Of a stretch of DNA of 64,000 bases, positions 2,990 through 8,831 are shown piece after piece. A model generated the notes under the pieces. The model was not told the origin of the DNA, searched no databases, and was given only the letters and a program-made list of their open reading frames with translations. The translations under genes were made by a program, and so were the position numbers. The DNA comes from Theionarchaea archaeon (GTDB taxonomy: Archaea > Methanobacteriota_B > Thermococci > Methanofastidiosales > SZ-28-30), in the NCBI GenBank assembly GCA_018992685.1, contig JACVGT010000031.1, forward strand, positions 1-64,000, read 5' to 3'. Each line of letters opens with the position of its first letter. The stretch's first letter is position 1.

Positions 2990-3361
2990 ATGGAAGTCCA
3001 GATTGAGGATGAAACGCTGGAATTTCTCCTCCATGCGTGTAAGAGTACACATCCTGATGAATTTGCCGGGTTCTTGAGGGAACGAAAAGGAGTGATTACT
3101 GAAATCCTGCTGGTTCCTGGAACTATTTTCGGCAAGACAGGCTCTGTGGTCAACTACTGGAACCTTCCTATTGATCCCTCTGTGAGTGGGACTGCCCATT
3201 CCCATCCTTCTGCAAATGTTACTCCCTCTCCCAGTGATTTGCGGTTCTTCTCCATCTTTGGAAAATATCATGCCATCGTGGGGTTTCCCTATGCAGAACA
3301 GAGTATCCAGTTCTATGCCAGAGATGGTAGCAGACTCGCCCACAAGGTGGTCACGTGGTGA
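2990..3361 (+). CDS. JAB/MPN+ (Mov34) metalloprotease
   Basis: N-terminal Glu (HPDEF) plus HSHP....PS.SD JAMM motif. Confidence 0.9.
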   Translation: MEVQIEDETLEFLLHACKSTHPDEFAGFLRERKGVITEILLVPGTIFGKTGSVVNYWNLPIDPSVSGTAHSHPSANVTPSPSDLRFFSIFGKYHAIVGFPYAEQSIQFYARDGSRLAHKVVTW

Positions 3362-4767
3362 AGTATGCAGAGACAGAGTGGGTCAGAAAACAATTTCTTC
3401 CTCCTGAAGAGAGAATCATGATCAATCCATTGGATCCTGTTTACAAGTCCATGCTTGAACGTGCCACCTATGAAGAAAAGGACATTATTCCAGAAATCAA
3501 GAAGAGGCTTTCTGAGATGCTCTCAGAGTCTGACGACACCAGAAGAAGCACTGTTGAACCTGAGCCTTCAAAGGAGGTCATGTACCAGCTCTTTCCCCTG
3601 GTTTCGGTGGCCAGAAAAGGTTCTCATTCCAGGGAGGCGGGATTGGCAATACGAATGGTAGTAGAACCCATAAGAGAGAGATTATGGCATGCTCTCGACA
3701 ACCAGAGGATCAGGCGTGACGTCCTCGATACTATGAAAGGTGTTTCCTCAGTGTGTACCCTCTCAGAAACAGGAGTAACCATTCCACGGGAGGACAGGTT
3801 CCGCCTGGGGTCTGAAGAAGACCATCTGCAGTATGCAATACGTTGGGTCGATGTGGCCGATACTGACCTCACCCAGCACTACCTTGTGGAAGGGTGGATT
3901 CCTTTCACCAGGTCACAGCTCATCGACGTGTATTCAGAGCTGCTCACCAAGGCCTTGAAGCGATATATAGATGAGAAAAGGGAGGAATACAGAACCCAGA
4001 ATATCAAACTCCCTTCAGTCTTCACCCGTATTCTTAACCTTATTTCTTCCGAAGTCCCTGCTGTGTCAGTGGCTCCCGTGGGGGCCGCAGATTTTGATGA
4101 GAATGCGTTTCCCCCCTGCGTGAGGGAAGCTCTCCAGGGTACCTCCTCCGGTCTGAGAAACTATGCCATCACTGTGCTTTTGACTGCCTTTCTTTCCTAT
4201 GCCAGGGTCTATCCCTCTCTGACTGCGTTTGACCAGGAAAAGAAACCTGAGCTCTCTTCCGAACAGATTGAGATTATTCTGGAGGACGTGGCTCCCCTGA
4301 TCATTGAAGCGGGGAACAAGTGCGATCCCCCTCTGTTTCAAGACCAACCCATCGAACAGGCGAATGTCTTCTACCACCTGGGATTTGGCCTGAGTGAATC
4401 GCCTTCTCCCAGAGATTTTGGCACATCGAAGTGGTACCTCCCTCCCAGTTGCGCCAAGGTTAAGCAGAATGCACCCTCCCTGTGTAAACCAGATGAGTTG
4501 TGCCTTCAGGGGATATATGCGGTGGCAGACCGCACGAGGCTGGACCAGCTCATCAGCAGCAATACAGGAGATGCGCAAAGGGTCCTGCTGGCCCTCAGAA
4601 AGACCAGGAATCCTCAGAGGATTGCGGAGGCTTCAGGTGTTGATATTGGAGAAGTGAACAGGATTTTGCACAACCTGCACAAGGATGATGTTCTTGTCCT
4701 GTTACGGGTCAAGAATCCCCTGGTCTACTACGTGAGAAAGATCAGAAGGAGAAAGAGGACGAAATGA
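3355..4767 (+). CDS. priL: DNA primase large subunit
   Basis: FPPC...G.RNYAITVLL.AFLSYAR, WY.PPSC.K.K...LC.PD.LC and C-terminal KNPL.YY motifs of Thermococcales-type PriL. Confidence 0.9.
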   Translation: MVKYAETEWVRKQFLPPEERIMINPLDPVYKSMLERATYEEKDIIPEIKKRLSEMLSESDDTRRSTVEPEPSKEVMYQLFPLVSVARKGSHSREAGLAIRMVVEPIRERLWHALDNQRIRRDVLDTMKGVSSVCTLSETGVTIPREDRFRLGSEEDHLQYAIRWVDVADTDLTQHYLVEGWIPFTRSQLIDVYSELLTKALKRYIDEKREEYRTQNIKLPSVFTRILNLISSEVPAVSVAPVGAADFDENAFPPCVREALQGTSSGLRNYAITVLLTAFLSYARVYPSLTAFDQEKKPELSSEQIEIILEDVAPLIIEAGNKCDPPLFQDQPIEQANVFYHLGFGLSESPSPRDFGTSKWYLPPSCAKVKQNAPSLCKPDELCLQGIYAVADRTRLDQLISSNTGDAQRVLLALRKTRNPQRIAEASGVDIGEVNRILHNLHKDDVLVLLRVKNPLVYYVRKIRRRKRTK

Positions 4768-5516: not shown

Positions 5517-5909
5517 ATGACAGAAGATGAAATAGAAGCCAAAGAGGCCAATAGACGGCTCCTTGACGGCGCAGAAACCAAGGTCAGATTGGATACTGAG
5601 GCAGTACTGGTTAAACTGGATAATACGATGCGCAGGATCACTGACATACTGTTCATGGTAATTCTTGGAAGTCAGACTGAGGAAGGAAGTTCTGGCAGAG
5701 ATTTCTTAAAAGAGGAAATGGTAACCCGCGTTTCAGAAATAGGAACAGAAGAACGCAGTCTTGTACAGTCCGTTGAGGATTTGGCGAAAGCCATTCTTGG
5801 ACTGGCACGGAGTGTGTATGAGGAATCAAGTCCTTTGCAATCAGGAACCGAATACTATGCCGATTCTGGGAGACAGTCTAGAGGGCCGTATCAGGGAGAA
5901 TGCTCATGA
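5517..5909 (+). CDS. Hypothetical helical protein (possible N-terminal TM extension from 5388)
   Basis: Strong GGAGGTG SD before ATG 5517; ORF track 5388..5909. Confidence 0.6.
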   Translation: MTEDEIEAKEANRRLLDGAETKVRLDTEAVLVKLDNTMRRITDILFMVILGSQTEEGSSGRDFLKEEMVTRVSEIGTEERSLVQSVEDLAKAILGLARSVYEESSPLQSGTEYYADSGRQSRGPYQGECS

Positions 5910-6044
5910 ACACAGAAACCTGCACCATGGATTGCGTCAAGCTGTTTGCACATGAGTTCATGAAAAGACACTATCCTTCACGGGTGAATCTCAAAATCTG
6001 CAAATCGACAAAAGCCATATTAGATAATACTTACAGAGACGTTT

Positions 6045-7430
6045 ATGACTCCACCCAGCAGCCATGAAGAACGAGATGCTGAACTCATGGTTGACATTCT
6101 GGACTTTGCACGGTGTCACGGAAGGAAGATTCTGAAAGACCAGATGAAGGTCGTGGGAGGCGAGAGAATCCAGACAGTGCTGCAACGACTTCTTATTGGC
6201 GAATATCTTGAAAGAATTGAGAAAAAGGACATTCCTGTCTTTTACACACTGACCTCAAAGGGACTAAACCTGTTCGAAGAGCGTCTGACCTCCCAGCTTT
6301 CAAAAGACTCACGACAACACGTTGCTGAAACTCTTGCCAACGCAATGGCTGAACTTGAAGCAAAGCCCTGGGAAGTGATGTTTCACATCATTCACGTCAT
6401 CGGAAAAAGCAGGGGGGCCACTACTGGGGACATCGAAGAGTACTTCCATACGTATTTGCCTGAGATAAAAGGGACATCCAGGGCAAATATCTACCGGAAC
6501 ATAAAGCACCTGAGGATGAAGGGGTACATTCAATATAAGAAACGGAGTCATCTTGATCAAAATCAATACAGACTGTCAAAGAAGGGGGAGGAGATCTTTT
6601 ACATGACAAAAATTGATGCGACTCGGAACCTGCGCACAGCAGAAGAGTGGGACAGTACACTCAAGGAAGTGTTCAAAAGCGTGGCTGACCAGCAGAAGGA
6701 GGATGACAGCGCTCTTTTCTATGTTATGGAGCACAGCATCCCAGAAGGGTTGGACGTGTCCCAGATCGTCTGGGTACTCTACAACCAGGGTGCCCTCTAC
6801 GAACTGAAAAACAACCTGGATAAGGCTGAAGAGTCTTACGTGCGCATGGAAGGGATCTGTGAAGAACTTGAAGACACACGCGGAAGAATCTATGCACTGA
6901 AGGGACTGGGAAATGTATCGTTCAAGAAGGAAAAATACACAGTGGCTGAACAGTATTACAAGAGGTGCCAGAGAATTCTTCAGACTTTTCAGGATACATT
7001 GCTGCTGTCTGACGTTCTGAATAACCTGGGTTCCTGCCTCTACATGAAGGATGACGTTGACGAAGCGCTGGCCCTATTCTGTGAGGCCCTCACCTTGGCT
7101 GGGAGTGACATGTCCAGGAGAGCCTCCACGCTCTACAATGAAGGGCTATGTTTTGCCCGAAAGGAAGATCTTGATGGAGCGAGAACTGCCTGGGAGGAAA
7201 GTTTAGCCCTCTACAAAGAAATGCAGGAACCTGTAGACATGAAGAAAGTGGAATATAATATCAGGCAGATAGATAGAAAACAGAAGGGAGACTACTTGGA
7301 AAAGGCCTACAGAAGAGCCCTGGAGATGGGGACTTCGCAGGACATTGAAAGGAGCTACAGAGAACTATCCGAATTCCAGATGAATGATCTCGTGGCATTA
7401 ACTGATTCCTTACCAGAGAGTTCAACGTGA
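6045..7430 (+). CDS. Tandem winged-HTH plus C-terminal TPR repeat regulator
   Basis: Two wHTH-like ends (Y.LT.KG and SRANIYRNIKHL...GYI...YRLSKKG). The C-terminal half carries TPR consensus (LYNQG.LY, ALKGLGNV, LNNLG.CL, LYNEG.CF). Confidence 0.85.
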   Translation: MTPPSSHEERDAELMVDILDFARCHGRKILKDQMKVVGGERIQTVLQRLLIGEYLERIEKKDIPVFYTLTSKGLNLFEERLTSQLSKDSRQHVAETLANAMAELEAKPWEVMFHIIHVIGKSRGATTGDIEEYFHTYLPEIKGTSRANIYRNIKHLRMKGYIQYKKRSHLDQNQYRLSKKGEEIFYMTKIDATRNLRTAEEWDSTLKEVFKSVADQQKEDDSALFYVMEHSIPEGLDVSQIVWVLYNQGALYELKNNLDKAEESYVRMEGICEELEDTRGRIYALKGLGNVSFKKEKYTVAEQYYKRCQRILQTFQDTLLLSDVLNNLGSCLYMKDDVDEALALFCEALTLAGSDMSRRASTLYNEGLCFARKEDLDGARTAWEESLALYKEMQEPVDMKKVEYNIRQIDRKQKGDYLEKAYRRALEMGTSQDIERSYRELSEFQMNDLVALTDSLPESST

Positions 7431-7630
7431 CATTTTTGACAGAACGACACAGAAGCCCGGTCTTCTCCGCACTGAGGGAACTCAACTGGGTTTGTAGAAT
7501 CCTAAGAAATGAGACATTTGTCAAAAATCAGGACTAATCCAAATTTAAAATACAATATATAGACTATTTCTTGATAAATTGAGAACTAATTATATCTATG
7601 CATTTAGATCCAAGTGTGAGGTGACTGAAA

Positions 7631-7726
7631 ATGTACACTATGGGCGTATTTGGTTTGCCACTTGTCCTTGGGGGAGTGACCCCTTCTGGGGGAAAACCGG
7701 GAGATGACCCTGGCAGTCCTTGCTAA
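7631..7726 (+). CDS. 31-aa peptide MYTMGVFGLPLVLGGVTPSGGKPGDDPGSPC (not in ORF track)
   Basis: GAGGTGA SD 6 nt upstream, AT-rich TATA-like region at 7540-7600, and T-tract at 7758-7771 downstream. Confidence 0.65.
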   Translation: MYTMGVFGLPLVLGGVTPSGGKPGDDPGSPC

Positions 7727-7754
7727 GGCAGGCACAAAGCAGAGTTACTACTTT

Positions 7755-8831
7755 CTATTTTTCTTTTTTTTCAATGAGTGTCTTGATCTGTTCCTTATAG
7801 TGTGCAAAGGGGAATATCCACCGCTGCGTCTCAATGTCGAAATGTTCATCGTTAAAAGATTTCTTCATGGGATCGTGGACAGATTTCAACTGGAGACATC
7901 GAACCTGTACTTGTGGAGACAGACCTCCAAGCGTGTTCATCAATTCAGGCCCCACCTGGGGGCTTGTCACGCACCACACAAAGCCCATGTCCCTGCACAT
8001 GGTATATGCCTTATACAGCCGACAATCCTGGCCAAAGTTCACCAGGAATTTAACAACATCTTCTGGATCACCCTCAACCAGTAGCAAGAACCCATAACTC
8101 TCTATCCAGGGAAATGGAGAGATATTAAAGTGTTTCCTCTCGGCAATTCCAGCACTGCAGATCTTCTCAATACTGTACTTGATCTGGCTGCGCCTCCAGA
8201 ACCGTCCGTACACTCTCTTTTCTATTCGCTGGATTTCGCTGATATTGCATGTTTTCACCTGCAAGTACTGCATCACCTGCAGGTCAATGAACCTCCACCA
8301 CGTATCAGACGTTCTTTCGGGGTATGCCAGGTCAATGGCCACCTCATCGAAGACATGTGAAACTGGTGGGATTATTTCACCAAAGAAGTCGGGATTCTGG
8401 ACAAACCACCTGTTCTGGGAAGAATGTACCTCATATGTTATGAACCCTGCGTGTTGTATGATGGAAAGAAGCCTTGTGAGGTAGGCATAGTAATTCGACC
8501 TGAACACAACAAAGAAGGTATCCCCCTGCATGGTGGGAAAGATCCACTCCCAGCAATCAATCGATGTGATCAGTTCAAAGGCTGAATCATACTCTCTGGG
8601 ATCGAACCGGATCTCAGTCAGTATATTGTGGACGCGATTCTCACCTACCGCATTTAGGTTGATGTGGTAGAATGGTCCTCTGATATACCCTGCCTTTCTC
8701 AGGCTGGCTATCTTACTGCTCACTGTGCTGATCCGCCTGTAGTGCAGGGAGTGCTGCAGTCTCGACTTAGAAAGTGAACAATCCTTTCCAAGTAATGTGA
8801 GGAGGTTCTTTTCAGGGTCATTCAAGGTCAC
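7755..8831 (-). CDS. Tandem Lrp/AsnC-like winged-helix regulator
   Basis: N-terminal wHTH (EKNLL.LL.KD...STVSSKI.SL.K.GYIRG) and a second unit starting D..VM.YLQ, each followed by a beta/alpha RAM-like segment. Confidence 0.7.
   Translation of the reverse strand: MTLNDPEKNLLTLLGKDCSLSKSRLQHSLHYRRISTVSSKIASLRKAGYIRGPFYHINLNAVGENRVHNILTEIRFDPREYDSAFELITSIDCWEWIFPTMQGDTFFVVFRSNYYAYLTRLLSIIQHAGFITYEVHSSQNRWFVQNPDFFGEIIPPVSHVFDEVAIDLAYPERTSDTWWRFIDLQVMQYLQVKTCNISEIQRIEKRVYGRFWRRSQIKYSIEKICSAGIAERKHFNISPFPWIESYGFLLLVEGDPEDVVKFLVNFGQDCRLYKAYTMCRDMGFVWCVTSPQVGPELMNTLGGLSPQVQVRCLQLKSVHDPMKKSFNDEHFDIETQRWIFPFAHYKEQIKTLIEKKEK

Follow-up and report, generated by a model that had tools for sequence, protein, structure and literature searches.

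RRNPP-type cassettes, namely Rap-Phr, NprR-NprX, PlcR-PapR, PrgX and AimR-AimP of Firmicutes and phages along with the related Rgg/SHP and ComR/XIP, are defined by a peptide-binding domain of the tetratricopeptide repeat (TPR) type that is homologous to that of Rap, NprR, PlcR, PrgX or AimR, and by a pro-peptide that carries an N-terminal secretion signal and whose mature signal is a short C-terminal piece. Double-glycine leader peptides are those of class II bacteriocins and quorum peptides, and the established ligands of the Lrp/AsnC fold are free amino acids or, in the case of NirDL, a tetrapyrrole. Here we describe a 31-codon open reading frame (ORF) lying between two regulator-like genes in the first 64,000 nucleotides (nt) of contig JACVGT010000031.1 (assembly GCA_018992685.1) of a Theionarchaea archaeon, a stretch hereafter called the window. 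A sequence-only reading of the window had grouped this ORF with the upstream gene for a 461-amino-acid (aa) protein with two winged helix-turn-helix (wHTH) units and TPRs, and with a convergent gene for a 358-aa tandem Lrp-like protein, as a candidate peptide-signalling module laid out like an RRNPP cassette, with either flanking regulator as the possible partner. From gene neighbourhoods and alignments, the constant partner of the small ORF is the 358-aa Lrp-fold protein and not the TPR regulator. We favour, with moderate confidence, a two-gene module of the Theionarchaea and their order in which the peptide is the cognate effector of the Lrp-fold protein.

The known kind to which such a module would belong is that of a regulator with its cognate gene-encoded peptide, although the proposed type of ligand would be new for the Lrp/AsnC fold. 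Similar to RRNPP cassettes, a regulator-like cytoplasmic protein is encoded beside a tiny gene whose functional part would be a short C-terminal stretch, several diversified cognate pairs occur per genome, and one class of the peptides has a signal-peptide-like N-terminus. In contrast to RRNPP cassettes, the co-travelling partner has an Lrp/AsnC fold rather than TPRs, the two genes are convergent, the host is an archaeon, and the window peptide has no recognisable secretion signal. The neighbouring TPR protein, with its two winged helices and generic TPR solenoid, is separable from the peptide gene, and the coupling of pro-peptide and receptor genes that marks an RRNPP cassette is found here with the Lrp-fold gene and not with the TPR gene.

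The Lrp/AsnC or feast/famine regulatory proteins (FFRP) that we compared by their structure titles (LrpA, 1i1g; PH1519/FL11, 2cyy; ST1022 with glutamine, 2efq; Rv3291c with Phe, 2vbw) combine a helix-turn-helix (HTH) with a RAM domain (beta-alpha-beta-beta-alpha-beta) that holds the effector, and the 358-aa protein has this arrangement twice in tandem. It differs from them in having two complete units fused in a single chain, which also has a conserved, aromatic linker and extends further at the C-terminus; in not being recognised by the curated HTH_AsnC-type and AsnC_trans_reg models; and in its proposed effector, which is a peptide encoded by a gene and not a free amino acid. The siroheme decarboxylases NirDL and AhbA-AhbB (4ch7, 4czc) share the fused tandem Lrp/AsnC-like fold and, in the excerpt of PMC4835899 that was available, a ligand lodged in the cavity of two ferredoxin-like domains, as is predicted here for the peptide. 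However, NirDL is only 12% identical to our protein and acts on a tetrapyrrole as an enzyme of haem/d1 biosynthesis, whereas the present locus shows no sign of tetrapyrrole chemistry and has a peptide gene as the conserved neighbour. The literature surveyed, which consisted mostly of titles and the openings of abstracts, yielded no archaeal peptide-based regulator/ligand cassette and no peptide-binding Lrp/AsnC protein, and in the available portion of PMC12700828 the word 'archaea' occurs only in the reference list. Within that literature the module appears to be undescribed, as the sequence-only reading had supposed.

The small gene and its peptides

All three ORFs were found as the sequence-only reading had described them, with an AT-rich spacer of ~200 nt between the TPR gene and the small ORF, a GAGGTGA Shine-Dalgarno (SD) sequence in front of the latter, and the 358-aa ORF running convergently toward it, the two stop codons being 28 nt apart. 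The T-tract noted downstream of the small ORF (~7753-7771) is likewise present, but because on the opposite strand it falls within the Lrp-like gene's 3' end and codes for a Lys-rich C-terminus, it is not independent evidence of a terminator. The window peptide itself has a hydrophobic N-half and a C-half rich in Gly, Pro and Asp.

Three paralogous cassettes occur in the genome (on contigs C23, which is the window, C4 and C1), in which a TPR gene stands with a single Lrp-fold gene or with two of them. The gap between the genes contains, in every cassette, a small ORF that lies on the TPR strand, follows an SD sequence and shares a common core. When the 3.03-Mb genome was scanned in six frames for P[CS]GG.{1,5}GD, three of the four matches were the small ORFs of these cassettes, a result that is circular because the motif had been derived from those same ORFs. 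A second genome of the same genus carries orthologues of all three, their C-halves unchanged and their N-halves altered. For the wider family, we counted as a small ORF any convergent frame of at least 15 codons that ends no more than 260 nt from the end of the Lrp-fold gene and has at least seven G, P or D residues among its last 16. Such an ORF stands at 39 of the 65 tandem-Lrp homologue loci that have at least 300 nt of downstream sequence, against a chance expectation, taken from the genome-wide rate, of 0.059 per 300 nt of one strand; the 65 loci are not independent, several of them being near-identical populations, and the 39 yield 33 distinct peptides. A small ORF does recur beside homologous Lrp-fold genes, and we regard its linkage to the Lrp-fold gene as established.

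The ORF is also conserved as a coding sequence. A codon alignment of 12 class-1a genes (class 1 being the shorter of the two peptide classes described below) preserves the frame through 3-nt insertions and deletions, and the invariant P, G, G, G, D and P residues are encoded with varying wobble positions. The ATG, the SD sequence and the frame of the small ORF are all conserved. Summed over the 12 genes, pN/pS (the ratio of nonsynonymous to synonymous differences per site) is 0.475 overall; it stands at 0.33 in the last 15 codons and at 0.64 in the N-half, which demonstrates purifying selection on the ORF. A search of Rfam over positions 7350-7850 gave no family at its gathering score; the only match, to SNORD45, is at chance level (18.5 bits where the gathering score is 42; E 0.74). 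The sequence-only reading had called the ORF unannotated. This is true of the window's exact peptide, which is absent from a collection of 15 billion proteins, but less so of its relatives, since seven of the ten small ORFs that were looked up are present in that collection, either unnamed or as 'hypothetical protein'. On this comparative evidence, the 31-codon ORF is a real, selected and uncharacterised gene. Six RNA sequencing runs contained next to none of the stretch's words and have no bearing on expression.

The 11 aligned class-1a upstream regions all have AGGTGA 6-9 nt before the ATG. They also share a conserved TA-rich, TATA-like block at the promoter position, along with further conserved AT-rich blocks, and the small gene therefore probably has a promoter of its own. 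About 110-125 nt upstream of class-1a small genes, relatives carry a dyad-symmetric box, TCTCAA-N3-TTGAGA followed by ACA, that sits just past the stop codon of the TPR gene. The box has the same position in loci L014, L044 and L047-L054, and its copy in the window is degenerate. The TPR protein may regulate the small gene.

The peptides fall into two classes, and in both of them conservation is concentrated in the C-terminal tail. Class-1 peptides are 25-37 aa long (31 aa in the window), with a variable, moderately hydrophobic N-half and a conserved tail; among 20 aligned members P18, G20 and P30 are invariant, and G21, G24 and D25 are conserved in at least 90%. They often carry one or two Cys residues, although these are replaceable, the first by S, Y, L, M or F and the last by G, S, V or I. 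Class 2 comprises nine distinct peptides of 60-69 aa, encoded after the first of two tandem Lrp-fold genes. Their N-terminus has K or R followed by a hydrophobic stretch (maximum Kyte-Doolittle hydropathy in a 19-residue window, KD19, of 2.06-2.80) that resembles a signal peptide or a membrane anchor. Their tail is conserved, acidic and rich in Pro and Gly, ends in G-D-P-E-H-P-x, is related to the class-1 tail and is sometimes followed by a poly-Gly run. An example of this class lies at G000:C1:17400-17594 (-), between two tandem Lrp-fold genes, and relatives of it were seen in L028, L029, L063, L065, L067, L070, L072 and L076, one of them being an NCBI 'hypothetical protein'.

The sequence-only reading had noted that GG marks leader cleavage in many exported peptides. 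The KD19 of class-1 peptides is 0.00-1.43, where the usual threshold for a membrane or signal segment is ~1.6. Since the window peptide, at 1.17, lies below that threshold, it is probably not exported by the Sec pathway, and class-1 peptides in general look cytoplasmic. Class-2 peptides, in contrast, are presumably exported. As in double-glycine leaders, L-G-G closes the hydrophobic N-half of the window peptide and of some relatives. Unlike in such leaders, the GG at this place is not conserved: relatives may have T, K, E, N or R instead of the second G, and one clade has W instead of the first. The idea of a GG-leader peptide or bacteriocin was rejected on this ground. No C39-peptidase exporter family was conserved nearby in the clustered neighbourhoods, in which families were not individually named.

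The partner of the small gene

For the 358-aa protein, Pfam and NCBIfam gave no family at E <= 0.1, and a precomputed Pfam domain (PF13412) exists for just one of its 72 homologue clusters. Because the curated family models miss it, we take the protein to represent a very divergent, lineage-restricted branch of Lrp/AsnC. A profile built from 45 homologues matched solved Lrp/AsnC regulators in the PDB with both of its halves, among them LrpA (1i1g) over residues 7-113 (E 4.4e-5) and PH1519 (2cyy) over residues 217-326 (E 5.1e-5). The AlphaFold2 model of the protein (predicted local distance difference test, pLDDT, 92.8; predicted template modelling score, pTM, 0.89) contains twice over a three-helix HTH, a wing and a beta-alpha-beta-beta-alpha-beta domain, together with a conserved linker and a C-terminal helix. 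With this model, the top Foldseek match was the siroheme decarboxylase NirDL (4ch7; E 9.5e-9, TM 0.50/0.57, 12% identity), and below it many Lrp/AsnC regulators matched single halves. The tandem Lrp/AsnC fold that the sequence-only reading had proposed is therefore confirmed by profile and model, even though it is invisible to Pfam and NCBIfam. Both HTH units look canonical for DNA binding of the AsnC type, and from these the protein would be a regulator.

The family is small and restricted to one lineage, and by the source names of close homologues the organism belongs with the Theionarchaea / Methanofastidiosia. It comprises 72 clusters at 90% identity and 26 representatives at E <= 0.001 among 1.84 billion, and it was found in 10 of the 34 genomes of the order and in 10 of the 133 of the class, with 7-11 family matches per genome in the window's genus. 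A scan of genome contigs gave six loci, all in genomes already covered. At one distant paralogue (G000:C24:17960-19174 (-), and likewise in G032:C142 and G033:C2) the family model matches in two pieces, ~3-228 and 208-362, within a single open frame of 421-422 codons, which suggests that the two Lrp units are separated by an insertion or by a highly divergent linker.

The choice between the two flanking genes was made by comparing neighbourhoods. We clustered the ORFs of 33 of them, in which the tandem-Lrp genes form family F0, the TPR genes F1 and genes for a ~130-aa protein F2, and distinguished four contexts. Context A has F0, a convergent small ORF, F1 and F2; context B has F0, a class-2 small ORF, a second F0, a class-1 small ORF, F2 and F1; context C places F0 and a small ORF between unrelated conserved genes and lacks a TPR gene; and context D has F0 in other synteny without a small ORF rich in G, P and D. 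The downstream convergent frames at five loci of context D (L061, L062, L064, L071 and L041) looked unconserved, and no tRNA genes lie downstream in this context. The Lrp-fold gene thus travels with the small ORF in three contexts. By contrast, a manual count of the 23 small-ORF loci with at least 2400 nt of downstream sequence found the TPR gene in 12 and missed it in 11. With the query used, G003 and G004 (88% and 69% complete) gave no TPR homologue, yet both have pairs of an Lrp-fold gene and a small ORF. Conversely, at L084 (G033:C49, 4802-6530 (-)) a TPR gene and a ~130-aa gene stand with neither an Lrp-fold gene nor a small ORF nearby. Because G033:C49 carries the TPR pair alone, this pair is separable from the Lrp/small-ORF unit. 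From the pattern of presence and absence of the TPR gene across contexts it therefore follows that the Lrp-fold gene and the small ORF are the unit that duplicates and moves, while the TPR gene and the ~130-aa gene form a second unit that often lies beside it. Of the two partners that the sequence-only reading had allowed, the neighbourhoods point to the Lrp-fold protein as the constant one.

As for the TPR protein, its description as a wHTH-wHTH-TPR protein held up. Pfam assigned it TPR_12 (E 7.9e-16), TPR_2 and TPR_1 and gave a sub-threshold winged-helix match (HTH_34, 22.8 bits against a cutoff of 27), and in its AlphaFold2 model (pLDDT 86.0, pTM 0.54) a TPR solenoid comes after a pair of winged-helix-like units. 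Its family is also confined to this lineage; it numbers 78 proteins at E <= 0.001, although the six weakest matches, from E 3.9e-12 on, belong to TPR proteins of other kinds. The best matches of its profile were consensus TPRs, Pins/LGN and kinesin light chain, with RRNPP receptors ranking far lower (NprR 4gpk, E 1.8e-4; Rap3T, E 3e-4), and no RRNPP receptor was among the top Foldseek matches listed for its model. A weak TPR match (E 4.5e-5) was also noted at G000:C1:1851-2378 (-), within an open frame of 1178 codons with a single in-frame TAG. The ~130-aa companion survives in the window as a remnant with 62% identity over 32 aa to its closest orthologue (tblastn, E 2.8e-10). Nothing significant was found by tblastn for the remainder of this gene in the window, which appears to have been deleted. 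The intact ~130-aa family has no Pfam family and no usable match in the ESM Atlas.

The predicted complex and rival explanations

We modelled the 358-aa protein together with the window peptide. The complex scored 0.82 (0.82, 0.82 and 0.43 in three runs), against 0.02 for the best of three controls, and the runs agree on at least 64% of the contacts. Among solved complexes 58 of 80 reached that mark, and among mismatched pairs 2 of 110. The predicted interface covers residues 19-31 of the peptide, precisely its conserved tail. Of the protein it takes in residues 51-56, RAM1 strands 92-98 and residue 109, the near-invariant linker residue W142 and residue 144, helix 185-194, residues 234-242, RAM2 strands 273-288, and the conserved segment 318-329 including F326. 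The model supports, at the level of a prediction, binding of the peptide tail in the cleft between the two RAM domains. A ligand at this place has precedent in the fold, because siroheme decarboxylase, according to the available excerpt of PMC4835899, holds its ligand inside the barrel of two ferredoxin-like domains.

As to co-variation of peptide and receptor, which the sequence-only reading had put forward as a check, interface residues differ systematically between the peptide classes. In the window's clade, Lys22 of the peptide goes with Q185 and W242 of the protein, whereas the other 15 class-1a rows have I, V, P or G at peptide position 22 and K/R185 with R242, and protein residue 185 is modelled touching peptide residue 22. 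This swap is no more than suggestive, because it represents a single evolutionary event and all of the pairs are inherited together.

Several points weigh against the peptide being the cognate effector of the Lrp-fold protein. By our criterion no small ORF stands at 26 of the 65 loci, mostly those of distant paralogues along with one conserved synteny group. One of the three runs of the complex model scored 0.43, and the pLDDT of the peptide is low (39-56). The calibration counts for the complex score hold only roughly here because custom alignments were supplied. Shared descent confounds the class differences at the interface as well as the charge swap. Conservation of the predicted interface residues does not exceed that of the rest (0.589 vs 0.552, a difference reached by 1927 of 10000 random sets), which is neutral. 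The best whole-chain structural match is an enzyme, so a role as regulator is presumptive. A class-2 peptide, with its signal-like N-terminus, would carry its tail out of the cell and out of reach of a cytoplasmic receptor, unless the tail were re-imported or bound before export. Apart from these points, the dyad box is weakly supported as an operator: it is not enriched across the window (8 matches vs 11.8 expected), and for this reason no regulon can be derived from it.

The most probable of the alternatives, although we consider it improbable, is that the peptide is a stable microprotein subunit that constitutively completes or stabilises the tandem-Lrp fold and has no switching role. The complex model, the cytoplasmic look of class-1 peptides and the tight synteny would all suit such a subunit. 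Nevertheless, the small gene is convergent, has promoter-like elements of its own and is not co-transcribed with its partner, an arrangement that suits separate regulation. Additionally, the 358-aa protein alone already folds confidently in the model, and the class-2 variant has an export-type N-terminus.

Somewhat less probable again is a relationship of enzyme and substrate, or of the kind found with ribosomally synthesised and post-translationally modified peptides (RiPPs), in which the tandem Lrp-fold protein would process or chaperone the peptide, and the small ORF would encode its substrate, or a precursor with a tail that undergoes modification or is handed to another enzyme. Structurally the top match is to an enzyme, NirDL; the peptides combine a variable N-half with a conserved core that often has one or two Cys; and the model buries the tail in the cavity that is occupied by the substrate in siroheme decarboxylase (PMC4835899, from the same excerpt). 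The export signal of class 2 is also of a type frequent in secreted natural products. However, the 33 clustered neighbourhoods show no conserved family of modifying enzymes, proteases or exporters beside the pair, the Cys residues can be replaced, identity to NirDL stops at 12%, and both HTH units have the canonical look of AsnC-type DNA binding.

The RRNPP framing of the sequence-only reading, with the wHTH-wHTH-TPR protein as receptor and the small ORF as a pro-peptide that is exported, cleaved at GG and sensed by the TPRs, is less probable still. The layout of the window does resemble it, with the small ORF co-directional with the TPR gene and ~200 nt downstream of it, and a TPR gene is present at 12 of the 23 loci counted. 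The kind of TPR that matched best (LGN/Pins) binds extended peptides, as structure titles indicate, weak sequence matches to NprR (E 1.8e-4) and Rap (E 3e-4) exist, and a conserved dyad box lies between the TPR gene and the small gene. Against this, the TPR gene is missing at the other 11 loci and from one whole synteny class, G003 and G004 have no TPR homologue that we found, and G033:C49 has the TPR pair without a small ORF. Moreover, the GG is not conserved, class-1 peptides have no signal-grade hydrophobic segment, and the top Foldseek matches listed include no RRNPP receptor.

That the two genes have no functional link, the small ORF being an independent conserved gene or a non-coding element read by chance, would accommodate the 26 loci without a small ORF but is very improbable given codon-level purifying selection and conservation of the frame, repeated co-duplication with the Lrp-like gene in different contexts, the lack of any Rfam family at gathering score in 7350-7850, and a complex score far above the controls.

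Locus layout and the proposed module

The features of the locus are collected in Table 1. Elsewhere in the window, a 470-aa ORF at 3355-4767 (+) contains a DNA primase large-subunit domain (PF04104, E 4e-15) and gives a weak C-terminal match to a TrmB-like winged helix (E 0.027).

Table 1. Positions, strands and supporting evidence of features at the small-gene locus (window coordinates).
Feature	Positions	Strand	Evidence or comment
Remnant of the ~130-aa TPR-companion gene, first ~30 codons, inside a 55-aa ORF (5900-6067)	5894..5989	+	tblastn
wHTH-wHTH-TPR protein gene, 461 aa	6045..7430	+	Common but separable neighbour of the peptide/Lrp pair
Degenerate copy of the dyad-symmetric box, candidate operator	7500..7516	+	Positional conservation in relatives
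TATA-like AT-rich box, ~32-41 nt upstream of the ATG	7590..7599	+	Putative own promoter of the small gene
Shine-Dalgarno sequence GAGGTGA, 6 nt 5' of the ATG	7618..7624	+	Sequence; AGGTGA kept in class-1a upstream regions
Small gene (class-1 peptide), 31 codons and stop	7631..7726	+	Paralogues, orthologues, codon-level selection, alignment
Codons 19-31, conserved tail, ~P-x-G-G-x-[P/E]-G-D-D-x-x-T-P-x	7685..7723	+	Alignment; predicted contact with the tandem-Lrp protein
Gene for the 358-aa tandem Lrp/AsnC-fold protein, 2 x [HTH + RAM], proposed peptide receptor	7755..8831	-	Profile, AlphaFold2, Foldseek

In the reading that we prefer, that of the peptide as cognate effector of the Lrp-fold protein, the small gene would be expressed from its own promoter and SD sequence to make a peptide with an acidic, Gly/Pro-rich conserved tail of ~13 residues. 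This tail is predicted to dock in the tandem Lrp/AsnC-fold protein, inside the cavity that separates its two ferredoxin-like RAM domains and in which Lrp-fold proteins hold their effectors. Occupancy of the cavity would make the peptide a genetically encoded cognate effector that switches the activity of the protein, most likely its binding to DNA through the two canonical-looking HTH units, and the direction of this regulation is likewise a putative step. The module appears to have duplicated and diversified into several peptide/receptor pairs per genome, the paralogous pairs may be mutually specific, and the longer variant of the peptide has what resembles a signal-peptide N-terminus. The wHTH-TPR gene would then be a neighbouring, separable regulator unit rather than an obligate receptor.

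A bolder extension, which we consider speculative and rather unlikely, is that these loci make up the first genetically encoded peptide signalling family in Archaea, with several orthogonal pairs per genome whose tandem Lrp/AsnC-fold transcription factors sense cognate peptide tails. Class-2 peptides would be exported, trimmed and re-imported, serving communication between cells, and the short class would act inside the cell. If this were true, the Lrp fold, which senses free amino acids, would have been re-used as a peptide receptor and would represent a convergent counterpart of bacterial RRNPP systems. The effector claim itself lends itself to direct tests in vitro with no need to grow the organism, as the module is small (358 aa and 31 aa), looks soluble and is modelled with confidence. 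Should the model hold, peptides encoded by genes would be a new class of effector for one of the commonest transcription-factor folds of archaea, and uncultured sediment archaea would hold multiple private peptide/receptor pairs.

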